NCBI RefSeq assembly: GCF_003334785.1
Contig: NZ_QOWV01000001.1
Strand: one strand, 5' to 3'
DNA from: Escherichia coli
GTDB lineage: Bacteria; Pseudomonadota; Gammaproteobacteria; Enterobacterales; Enterobacteriaceae
DNA length: 64,000 nucleotides
Shown here one piece after another: positions 34,884 to 41,241 of the stretch. Position 1 is the stretch's first letter, and each line of letters begins with the position of its first letter. The notes beneath the pieces are model-generated. The model did not search any database. It was not told where the DNA came from and worked only from the letters and a program-made list of their open reading frames with translations. Both the position numbers and the translations under genes were made by a program.

Positions 34884-35531
<648 letters not shown>

Positions 35532-37489: not shown

Positions 37490-39073
37490 TTAAGGTTTCG
37501 GGTCGAAAATATCGGTTCCGAGATGGTTGTAATCCACCTTCTGTAACTGGAAGTTGGTGATGTATATCGGCCCGGCTTTCTTCTCAGATATAAACGGGTA
37601 TTTGATGTTAATTTCCTTCGCTTTAATCCCCGTCCACTGGGAGAAAAAGCCTAAGAAGTCATTGGCTGAGCGGCGGGCTTTAATCACACGATGCGCTTTA
37701 TCGTCGCTGGAAATGACCATAAAAGGCACCTGGAAATTTTGCTGATATTTATCATCATGGGCAAGGTATTGCACGTCTTTACCGCGCTCTTTAAAGGCCA
37801 GACCGTGGTCAGAAAAGTAAACCAGCGAGAAGCTGCTGCCGCTGTTGCGTAACTGATCGTACAGCTTGCGCAGTAAATCGTCCGTTTGCGTCATGGTATA
37901 GAGATAGCACGACGTTTCTTTCGATTGCACAAAGGTTTCGTATTTTCCTTGTGTCCTGTCGCAGGCCTGCGGATGTGAGCCCATCAGATGTAGAACAATC
38001 AGCTGCGGTTGCGAGTGCTCTTGCGCCAGCACTTGAGCGGTCATATCCAGTAACGCTTCGTCTTTGGTGTTTTTATCTGCTTCAAAATTACCTTCTTTCA
38101 GGAAGTACACTTCATCTGCTCGTTTGGCGATGCTGGCGATAGCGGTATCGTATTCGCCGATTTGACCCTGGTTGGAAAACCACCAGGTCTGGAAGCCCGC
38201 GCGATTTGCCAGGGTGACAAAGTTATCCTGAAACTGTGGTTTGCCATCGACAACGCGATTGAGCGTTAAGCCAAGCGATTTCTGCGTGGAGCCACTGGCG
38301 GCAATGTAGTCAGCAAATATCAAACCGTTAACGCTGCTGGCAAACGGGGTATTGTCCCAGTGACCGCCAAAGGCACCGAGGGCATCGCGACGCGCGCTTT
38401 CACCGATCACCACCACATAGGTCTGATACTTCGGCTTAACGGCAGTGACCGTCCAGGTATCTTTCATTCCGGAAAGTTTTGCCATCCGTTCTTGCTCTTC
38501 AATCACCTCGTTATTATTGACGATGACATCCTTAGCAAAACGAAATACCGGATAGCCAGTATCTTTCAGTTTAAATACGCCACCCCAGGCCAGGTTTTGC
38601 ACGGGAGCAACAAAAAATGTCGCCACACTGAATACCAGACACAGGCTGTCGAAGGTATTCCAGCGCGCTTTTTCATTCTCTTTTTTTCGCCTGATTGCTA
38701 TTACGCCGAGCGCAAAAATAAATAAGCCGACCAGGTAGCTGTACCACGGAAAAATCGTCAGGATTTCGGTCGACTCTTCCATATTGGTGGAGTGCAATGC
38801 CAGCAATGTATTGAAATTAGGCGCGCCGTAGGCCTGAGCAAAAGGGAAATAACAAGCCGCCACCAGCGAACTGACACCGACCAGAACTTTTTGTACGCGA
38901 GGCAATGTTCGCCATAGCAAAAGCAAAATAGCCGTAAACGCAGCGGTGTAGAGCAAACTGAAGGGGTAACCTAAGCCGAGGTTAATTAATAGCGACTGTA
39001 AAAAGTAGAACGCAGTCCACGGGCTAAATACCCGGCTACGGGTAACAAGCGATTCTTTGAGGGTTAAATTCAT
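37490..39073 (-). CDS. opgE: OpgE (YbiP), phosphoethanolamine transferase (527 aa)
   Basis: ORF 37490..39073 minus; N-terminal TM segments plus sulfatase-like domain. Confidence 0.92.
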   Translation of the reverse strand: MNLTLKESLVTRSRVFSPWTAFYFLQSLLINLGLGYPFSLLYTAAFTAILLLLWRTLPRVQKVLVGVSSLVAACYFPFAQAYGAPNFNTLLALHSTNMEESTEILTIFPWYSYLVGLFIFALGVIAIRRKKENEKARWNTFDSLCLVFSVATFFVAPVQNLAWGGVFKLKDTGYPVFRFAKDVIVNNNEVIEEQERMAKLSGMKDTWTVTAVKPKYQTYVVVIGESARRDALGAFGGHWDNTPFASSVNGLIFADYIAASGSTQKSLGLTLNRVVDGKPQFQDNFVTLANRAGFQTWWFSNQGQIGEYDTAIASIAKRADEVYFLKEGNFEADKNTKDEALLDMTAQVLAQEHSQPQLIVLHLMGSHPQACDRTQGKYETFVQSKETSCYLYTMTQTDDLLRKLYDQLRNSGSSFSLVYFSDHGLAFKERGKDVQYLAHDDKYQQNFQVPFMVISSDDKAHRVIKARRSANDFLGFFSQWTGIKAKEINIKYPFISEKKAGPIYITNFQLQKVDYNHLGTDIFDPKP

Positions 39074-39344
39074 ATGCCACTATCGTAACAAACGCCATGT
39101 GCTTACCCTGGCGTCAAGGGTCAATACCTGCAAGAGTGCGTGAAGAGTGGAAAGGGGTCCGCATCCGCGAGCCGCAATATACGCAGGGCTGCAAGAAGAT
39201 AGAGCGAGCCGCCGTTCAGGTCAACTACTGACGAACAAATCTTTTGCGAAGGGGATTGCAAATCCGACAAAAAGTGGGGTTTTTCAGACCAAAACGCGTT
39301 ATGCCTGCATGAAAGCAGGAGTGAAGCGGCGTACCGCGACGCCG

Positions 39345-39473
39345 CTATTTATCGGAAGGTTTATCTTGCTGCGGTTTGTTGTTGACCATATCGCACAACA
39401 TAGAGAGCAGCATTAACCGTACTTTAAAGGGAGAATGACTAAACACGCGCATACACCTCTTGAACTCATTCAT
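39345..39473 (-). CDS. mntS: MntS, 42-aa manganese-homeostasis small protein (within the rybA transcript)
   Basis: Not in the ORF track (under its size cut-off); minus-strand translation gives MNEFKRCMRVFSHSPFKVRLMLLSMLCDMVNNKPQQDKPSDK, TAG stop at 39347-39345. Confidence 0.85.
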   Translation of the reverse strand: MNEFKRCMRVFSHSPFKVRLMLLSMLCDMVNNKPQQDKPSDK

Positions 39474-39529
39474 AAGACCTCCTGACTTGCTAATCCCGTC
39501 GATCCTTGAGGGATGATTGCATTACATAC

Positions 39530-39565
39530 AGATATAGCACAGGCTATATTATATAGCTATTGCTA
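39530..39565. promoter_or_regulatory. Putative MntR operator between divergent mntS and mntR
   Basis: Palindrome atagc-acag-gctat at 39534-39547 with a second atagc half-site nearby; resembles the MntR site ATAGC-N4-GCTAT as I recall it. Confidence 0.55.
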
Positions 39566-39658
39566 AAACGTTAATTTTTTGTACCTTCGCAACTCTGGTT
39601 TACAATGTGCGCACGAAATGAGAACGCTATGTATGCGTCACCATAATGAGGAAGCACA

Positions 39659-40126
39659 ATGAGTCGTCGCGCAGGTACGCCAACAGCAAAAAAAGTGACG
39701 CAGTTAGTGAACGTGGAAGAGCACGTTGAAGGGTTCCGCCAGGTCAGAGAGGCGCATCGGCGCGAGCTTATTGATGATTACGTTGAGCTGATTTCTGACT
39801 TGATCAGGGAAGTGGGGGAAGCTCGTCAGGTGGACATGGCTGCTCGTCTGGGAGTTTCGCAACCGACGGTGGCTAAAATGCTTAAGCGGCTGGCAACCAT
39901 GGGGCTGATTGAAATGATCCCCTGGCGTGGCGTGTTTTTAACGGCAGAAGGAGAGAAGCTGGCGCAGGAAAGCCGCGAGCGACATCAGATAGTCGAAAAT
40001 TTCTTGTTGGTGTTGGGCGTCAGTCCGGAAATCGCCCGTCGCGACGCGGAAGGCATGGAGCACCATGTTAGTGAAGAGACGCTCGACGCTTTTCGTTTGT
40101 TTACCCAGAAACACGGTGCCAAATGA
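39659..40126 (+). CDS. mntR: MntR, manganese-responsive DtxR-family regulator (155 aa)
   Basis: ORF 39659..40126; GAGGAAG RBS. Confidence 0.95.
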
Positions 40127-41241
40127 GCCTGCCTTTTTTACGCACGCTGCAAGGCGATCGTTTTTTTCAGTTATTAATTCTTGTTGGTATCGGATTAAGC
40201 TTTTTCGTGCCCTTTGCACCGAAATCCTGGCCTGCTGCTATCGACTGGCACACCATCATCACCTTAAGCGGCCTGATGCTGCTGACCAAAGGTGTGGAGT
40301 TAAGCGGTTATTTTGATGTGCTGGGGCGCAAAATGGTGCGCCGCTTTGCTACGGAGCGTCGGCTGGCGATGTTTATGGTGCTGGCGGCGGCGCTGCTTTC
40401 TACCTTTCTGACCAACGATGTCGCGCTGTTTATTGTTGTTCCGCTGACTATCACGCTAAAAAGACTGTGTGAGATCCCGGTTAATCGGCTGATTATTTTT
40501 GAGGCGCTGGCAGTCAACGCTGGTTCGCTACTGACGCCAATTGGCAACCCGCAAAATATTCTTATCTGGGGACGTTCTGGTCTTTCGTTTGCCGGATTTA
40601 TTGCCCAAATGGCACCGCTGGCTGGCGCAATGATGCTGACGCTCCTGCTCCTGTGCTGGTGTTGTTTCCCTGGAAAGGCGATGCAATACCATACGGGGGT
40701 GCAAACACCGGAGTGGAAACCGCGGCTGGTGTGGAGTTGTCTGGGGCTGTATATCGTCTTTCTGACGGCGCTGGAGTTCAAACAAGAGCTGTGGGGACTG
40801 GTGATTGTGGCGGCAGGCTTTGCGCTGCTGGCACGTCGCGTGGTGCTCAGTGTGGACTGGACGCTGCTGCTGGTGTTTATGGCGATGTTTATCGACGTCC
40901 ATTTACTGACCCAGCTTCCAGCGTTGCAAGGCGTGTTGGGTAACGTGAGTCATCTATCTGAACCCGGGTTATGGTTAACGGCAATCGGTTTATCGCAGGT
41001 GATCAGTAACGTGCCGAGTACCATATTGTTGCTGAACTATGTGCCGCCGTCTTTATTACTGGTATGGGCGGTAAACGTAGGTGGCTTTGGGTTATTACCC
41101 GGATCGCTGGCAAATTTGATTGCGCTACGTATGGCGAACGATCGCCGCATCTGGTGGCGTTTCCATCTCTATTCAATACCGATGCTGTTGTGGGCGGCGT
41201 TGGTGGGATATGTTTTGTTAGTTATACTCCCGGCCAACTAG
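40123..41241 (+). CDS. ybiR: YbiR, putative transporter of the ArsB/NhaD (ion transporter) superfamily (372 aa)
   Basis: ORF 40123..41241; start overlaps mntR stop (ATGA); multi-TM. Confidence 0.9.

Follow-up and report, generated by a model that had tools for sequence, protein, structure and literature searches.

mntS and its predicted two-box MntR operator upstream of mntR in a 64-kb Escherichia coli sequence

The region between opgE and mntR, in a 64,000-nucleotide stretch of Escherichia coli DNA (called here the window), raises the question of which strand carries a gene and what controls its expression. The longest open reading frame (ORF) at this locus in the window runs on the plus strand and encodes 89 aa. 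The minus strand carries an ORF of 42 codons, and a palindrome lies between this short ORF and the divergent gene mntR. The initial annotation, made from the raw sequence, had read the short ORF as MntS, encoded in the rybA transcript and repressed by MntR, and had considered the 89-aa ORF most likely spurious. The two reading frames and their immediate surroundings are defined by the following features:

39345..39473, minus strand: mntS coding sequence, 42 codons plus TAG, identified through K-12 b4705, NF033226 and conservation
39478..39483, minus strand: Shine-Dalgarno sequence AGGAGG, perfect, 4 nt 5' of the ATG, recognised by sequence
39147..39416, plus strand: spurious 89-aa ORF, running antisense to mntS and to the region 3' of it
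39659..40126, plus strand: mntR, Mn-dependent regulator, a 155-aa ORF scoring 269 bits against NF008273 (cut-off 153), K-12 b0817

Translation of the minus strand from 39473 to 39345 yielded MNEFKRCMRVFSHSPFKVRLMLLSMLCDMVNNKPQQDKPSDK followed by TAG, which confirmed the predicted 42-codon ORF. Its absence from the original ORF list fits the length cut-off that had been blamed for it: the ORF finder used here has a default of 60 aa, and it lists this ORF when the minimum is lowered to 20 aa. Over 621 bases (window 39080-39700), the sequence was 100% identical to that of E. coli K-12 MG1655, whose annotation at the matching positions (mapped onto the window with an offset of 813524) comprises mntS (b4705), the ncRNA rybA (b4416), mntR (b0817), opgE, and ybiR. 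We found no difference between the two strains here: the protein is the same, mntS (39473..39345, minus strand) and mntR (39659..40126, plus strand) are likewise divergent, and opgE and ybiR flank them as in K-12. Of 5426 complete E. coli genomes, 5422 matched a 601-base query and, among the matches listed, all E. coli RefSeq records annotate a 'manganase accumulation protein MntS'. The protein also scored 96 bits on the NCBIfam equivalog small_MntS (NF033226), whose cut-off is 36, with E = 6.3e-28 and an alignment that covers positions 1-40 of the 41 in the profile. In a collection of 5.8 billion proteins we retrieved 136 relatives, nearly all the named ones as MntS, from Escherichia, Citrobacter, Salmonella, Klebsiella, Enterobacter, Kosakonia, Kluyvera, and related genera. 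A Pfam scan of the 42-aa protein matched no family, whereas PF26599 was precomputed for every one of the 136 homologues; the releases probably differ, the library used for the scan being presumably older than this family. A PDB sequence search returned no solved structure for MntS. The ORF at 39473..39345 is E. coli mntS, an already known, annotated and mechanistically studied gene, and the proposed identity holds, since b4705 lies within b4416 and the NF033226 score is well above its cut-off.

The conservation of the locus was examined in the best 80 of 527 mntR matches, with one genome per species and Enterobacteriaceae as the only family sampled. As these loci were anchored on mntR and not on mntS, gene calling cannot bias the coding test. 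A tblastn comparison had been proposed as a check for conservation in the 42-aa frame only; in 77 of the 80 loci it located MntS on the upstream side of mntR, in divergent orientation, and two of the three others have almost no upstream flank. Together with the window, the 77 loci provided 78 sequences for alignment. All of them contain an intact ORF of 41-44 aa (42 aa in the window) with an ATG start, which is preceded by GGAGG in 77 sequences and by AGGAGT in the single exception. Across codons 1-34, the variable columns at codon positions 1, 2, and 3 numbered 17, 11, and 31 (of 34), respectively. Compared with the window sequence, the mntS frame showed a median pS of 0.54 and a median pN of 0.10, that is, a pN/pS of 0.18, as against 0.43-3.2 in the five other frames. 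The 42-aa frame, and that frame alone, is under purifying selection across Enterobacteriaceae, as the proposed check had anticipated. In the 67 distinct MntS sequences, whose N-terminal two-thirds are conserved, 16 residues are invariant (M1 N2 E3 R6 C7 V10 F11 H13 S14 P15 F16 V18 R19 L20 L22 K33), among them C7, H13, and the P15-F16 motif.

The control region upstream of mntS combines a promoter with two palindromic boxes:

39201..39540, minus strand: rybA/mntS transcript, 340 nt with a 67-nt 5'UTR, after K-12 b4416 (852725..853064)
39548..39553, minus strand: -10 hexamer TATAAT, between the boxes, with the annotated 5' end (39540) 7 nt downstream of it
39569..39574, minus strand: weak -35-like hexamer TTAACG, from the sequence and PMC3946193
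39532..39549, no strand: predicted MntR box 1, perfect 7+4+7 palindrome ATATAGC-ACAG-GCTATAT, from sequence, conservation and the core shared with mntH and mntP
39553..39566, no strand: predicted MntR box 2, ATAGC-TATT-GCTAA (ATAGCTATTGCTAA), at a distance of 19 bp from box 1 and matching 9 of the 10 half-site positions

The promoter is also listed by Shimada 2014, as TTAACG-16-TATAAT (PMC3946193), with a spacer of 16 nt where we count 15. The 5' end of rybA at 39540, for which the RefSeq annotation is the basis, falls inside the spacer of box 1, and the RybA label used here likewise rests on the K-12 annotation. According to PMC4361602, mntS lies in the RybA RNA, which occurs as species of 205 to about 400 nt that have the same 5' end and each carry the ORF. 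The initial annotation was correct in placing a palindrome between mntS and mntR (ATAGCACAGGCTAT at 39534..39547), but this is larger than described, with arms of 7 bp around a 4-bp spacer (39532..39549). Similarly, a second ATAGC does occur at 39553..39557, but it is not a half-site: it begins a near-complete second box. Box 1 was present in all 78 sequences, with the ATAGC and GCTAT halves invariant and all changes falling in the 4-bp spacer or the outermost flank. Box 2 was found in 76 of the 78 at a fixed 19-bp offset, in 13 of them as a perfect ATAGC-N4-GCTAT. Conservation is at least 95% in both boxes, which belong to the best-conserved intergenic block (39519..39580), in which most columns are at least 95% identical. 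The mntS operator is made up of two adjacent full MntR-type boxes, which we predict to be MntR sites, and their placement over the -10 region and the annotated start is compatible with repression.

The motif comparison with the mntH promoter suggested in the initial annotation revealed the same ATAGC-N4-GCTAT core there, and also at mntP. The mntH operator (AAACATAGC-AAAG-GCTATGTTT, just 5' of the ATG) has the same ATAGC-N4-GCTAT core as mntS box 1, here as ATAGC-AAAG-GCTAT, and is likewise placed close to the gene that it regulates. The two differ in architecture, since at mntS a pair of boxes 19 bp apart surrounds the -10 hexamer whereas mntH has one full box and an upstream CATAGC half-site, and in their outer flanks (ATAT at mntS, AAAC at mntH). 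Upstream of mntP, a gene annotated in K-12 MG1655 (b1821) that encodes the exporter and falls outside the 64-kb window, the core occurs twice, as ATAGC-TTAG-GCTAT and TTAGC-CAAA-GCTAT. These two sites, 40 bp apart and some 370-420 nt 5' of the ATG, mediate activation according to the literature. Within the window, the dps promoter has a box with the shared core, ATAGC-ACCG-GCTAT (35437..35450), in this case a single one over the -10. Apart from mntS box 1, this is the window's sole exact match to ATAGC-N4-GCTAT. It is located 50 nt 5' of the start codon of dps (35387, minus strand) and shares bases with a -10-like hexamer of the minus strand, TATACT. To judge by the title of Yamamoto 2011, cited in PMC5553809, dps is a reported MntR target.

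Three other explanations of the locus deserve attention. The 89-aa plus-strand ORF could be the true gene and the minus-strand ORF its antisense shadow. It does exist at 39147..39416 and overlap the locus, as the initial annotation stated, and it has in its favour that no ORF at the locus is longer within the window; nevertheless, we regard the probability of this reading as negligible. Its frame had a pN/pS of 0.96 in the overlap with mntS and is disrupted, by stops or by shifts, within Escherichia (another E. coli lineage, two Escherichia sp., and E. albertii) as well as in Citrobacter, Salmonella, Enterobacter, and Klebsiella. Over the 78 sequences the longest ORF in this frame varies from 5 to 118 aa without pattern. 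A comparison with NCBIfam matched no family, the ORF is absent from the annotation of both RefSeq records consulted (K-12 MG1655 and strain Ec-050), and most of its length falls on the region 3' of mntS and on the opgE promoter. Given the pN/pS value, a frame that is not kept even within Escherichia, and the missing family match, we rejected it as a gene, and the stops that interrupt it in other Escherichia agree with its earlier dismissal as spurious. A different objection would be that the minus-strand transcript acts solely as the non-coding sRNA RybA and that the 42-codon ORF is incidental. This accords with the K-12 label of the region as ncRNA rybA, with the repression of aroF and aroL by RybA under peroxide stress (Gerstle 2012, as cited in PMC11878033), and with PMC4361602, which leaves an sRNA role in other contexts possible. 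However, purifying selection on the 42-aa frame is strong (pN/pS 0.18, third-position wobble in 31 of 34 columns), the ATG is kept in 78 of 78 sequences and GGAGG in all but one, the MntS protein has been seen by mass spectrometry and is lost in a deletion strain (PMC12529367), and the overproduction phenotypes are ascribed to the protein and are Hfq-independent (PMC4361602). For its part, the 340-nt RybA RNA folded no better than shuffled sequences (z = 0.00), and an Rfam scan of 38500..40500 at E <= 1 detected no RNA family. Coding selection and the proteomic evidence exclude an exclusively non-coding RybA, a reading that we hold to be very improbable; a dual function, as protein and RNA, is possible.

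The remaining alternative concerns the operator of mntS, as its palindromes might be chance sequence of an AT-rich promoter, or might bind a regulator different from MntR. It draws on the fact that the motif is not rare once one mismatch is allowed (3 matches in the window against 1.66 expected). By contrast, the 64-kb window contains two exact copies of ATAGC-N4-GCTAT where shuffling predicts 0.02, and none of 100 shuffles reached 2. Both exact matches stand in promoters of genes named in the literature as MntR targets, mntS and (by the title of Yamamoto 2011) dps. The palindromes are not a chance feature. In addition, the half-sites are invariant over the 78 sequences whereas the spacers vary, the same core recurs at mntH and mntP, and MntR is encoded by the adjacent gene. 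We consider this alternative, too, to have very little chance of being right.

The initial interpretation as a whole is supported, its sole correction being that the operator contains two full boxes instead of a box and a half-site. We are almost certain that the locus is mntS with an MntR operator, and we found no evidence against this. The proposed mechanism would start at a sigma-70 promoter (-10 TATAAT, 39553..39548, minus strand), from which the rybA/mntS mRNA would begin at about 39540 with a 67-nt leader whose strong AGGAGG would direct translation of the 42-codon ORF; the message would end at a GC-rich hairpin over the stop codon, a termination likely leaky in Escherichia. The two MntR-type boxes flank the -10 hexamer, box 1 also lying over the start site. 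From this anatomy we infer promoter occlusion, with two MntR dimers sitting over the -10 hexamer and the start site: bound to the boxes, Mn(II)-loaded MntR would exclude RNA polymerase and switch mntS off. When manganese is scarce, the boxes would be free and MntS would be made; by binding and inhibiting MntP, it would let the cell retain manganese. The contributions computed here are the identity with K-12, the coding selection on the 42 aa, the anatomy and conservation of the boxes, and their likeness to the mntH, mntP, and dps sites; MntR:Mn repression, protein detection, and MntP inhibition come from the literature. That mntS is repressed by MntR:Mn, as had been claimed for this locus, is stated in PMC4361602. 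Other published data show that the signal of a PmntS-egfp reporter falls with Mn (PMC9806134) and that mntS mRNA serves as a calibrated read-out of MntR occupancy (PMC11742986). At the protein level, the tryptic peptide VFSHSPFKVR (residues 10-19 of the ORF) was detected in Mn-starved cells only, the mntS deletion strain lacked three of the four transitions with the remaining one ascribed to matrix interference, and MntS was estimated at about 6000 copies per cell (PMC12529367). The exporter MntP is bound and inhibited by MntS (bioRxiv 10.1101/2023.06.02.543501).

The same preprint (bioRxiv 10.1101/2023.06.02.543501) proposes the signal peptide of an mntR-linked SitA clade as the ancestor of MntS. 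By its account, the signal peptides of this SitA subset have in common with MntS a length of 40-45 residues, a PF motif, a kink at Pro15, and an association with mntR. In our alignment P15 and F16 of MntS are invariant, matching the PF motif of the SitA peptides. Compared with SitA as described, MntS is without the mature SitA domain, has lost the AXA cleavage motif, and has a polar C-terminus (NNKPQQDKPSDK).

Two hairpins of the mntS message and two candidate promoters of mntR complete the picture of the intergenic region and the mntS 3' end:

39326..39345, minus strand: GC-rich, terminator-like hairpin GCGGCGU-CGCGGU-ACGCCGC overlapping the mntS stop codon, in 74 of 78 sequences
39495..39513, minus strand: small 5'UTR hairpin UCCCUC-AAGGAUC-GACGGG, 6 bp, from covariation and folds
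39521..39550, plus strand: candidate mntR promoter ATTACA-18-TATATT, also predicted by Shimada 2014 (PMC3946193), overlapping box 1
39579..39606, plus strand: alternative candidate mntR promoter TTGTAC-16-TACAAT, downstream of the boxes

After the hairpin at the stop codon, most genera have UUCAUUUUU and Escherichia has UUCACUCCU (through 39317, minus strand). With the former tail it forms a canonical intrinsic terminator in most Enterobacteriaceae, whereas the U-tract is degraded in Escherichia; in Kluyvera, the stem shows a compensatory change. Because of this degraded U-tract after the conserved hairpin, a consensus terminator scan at the mntS 3' end of the window gave no site. A U-tract weakened in this way could explain why RybA shows a ladder of read-through species in E. 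coli. Further downstream, a promoter-like sequence, TTGACC-17-TATCTT, is found upstream of opgE (39196..39224, minus strand) within conserved blocks. As rybA is annotated to end within this site, at 39201, read-through mntS transcripts enter the opgE promoter.

The 5'UTR hairpin was spotted by eye and then tested by pair counts and single-sequence folds. Its cells were paired in 87% of cases against 38-60% in slid controls, four of its six pairs showed compensatory changes, and none of 500 shuffles reached its covariation score. The hairpin was part of the minimum free energy fold in six of six species, where it leaves the ribosome-binding site free; RNAalifold alone did not predict it. Both candidate mntR promoters fall within conserved blocks, and box 1 covers the spacer and -10 region of the predicted ATTACA-18-TATATT. 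As a consequence of this overlap MntR might autoregulate. Judging from the arrangement of these elements, we tentatively entertain the possibility, which we think unlikely, that the boxes autoregulate the mntR-ybiR operon and that, separately, the 5'UTR hairpin and the loss of the U-tract add post-transcriptional control or read-through towards opgE. A limited literature search found no description of mntR autoregulation or of control by the hairpin or the U-tract.

The mntS gene, its control by MntR, and its action on MntP are already published and present in the reference annotation, and the locus adds nothing new to the understanding of manganese homeostasis. Beyond this there are minor details: the possible autoregulation of mntR, the covarying 5'UTR hairpin, and the weakened U-tract of the terminator. 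The value of the analysis is that of a quality check, in which a reading of the raw sequence recovered a 42-codon gene hidden by a length cut-off and also rightly flagged a longer overlapping ORF as spurious.

The third of the mntR-anchored loci without MntS belongs to Citrobacter sp. R56 (locus L015). There, an insertion of AT-rich, foreign-looking DNA (2840..2920) takes the place of mntS and of box 1's left half; the breakpoint falls within box 1, leaving both box 2 and mntR intact. This arrangement looks like a natural loss of mntS.
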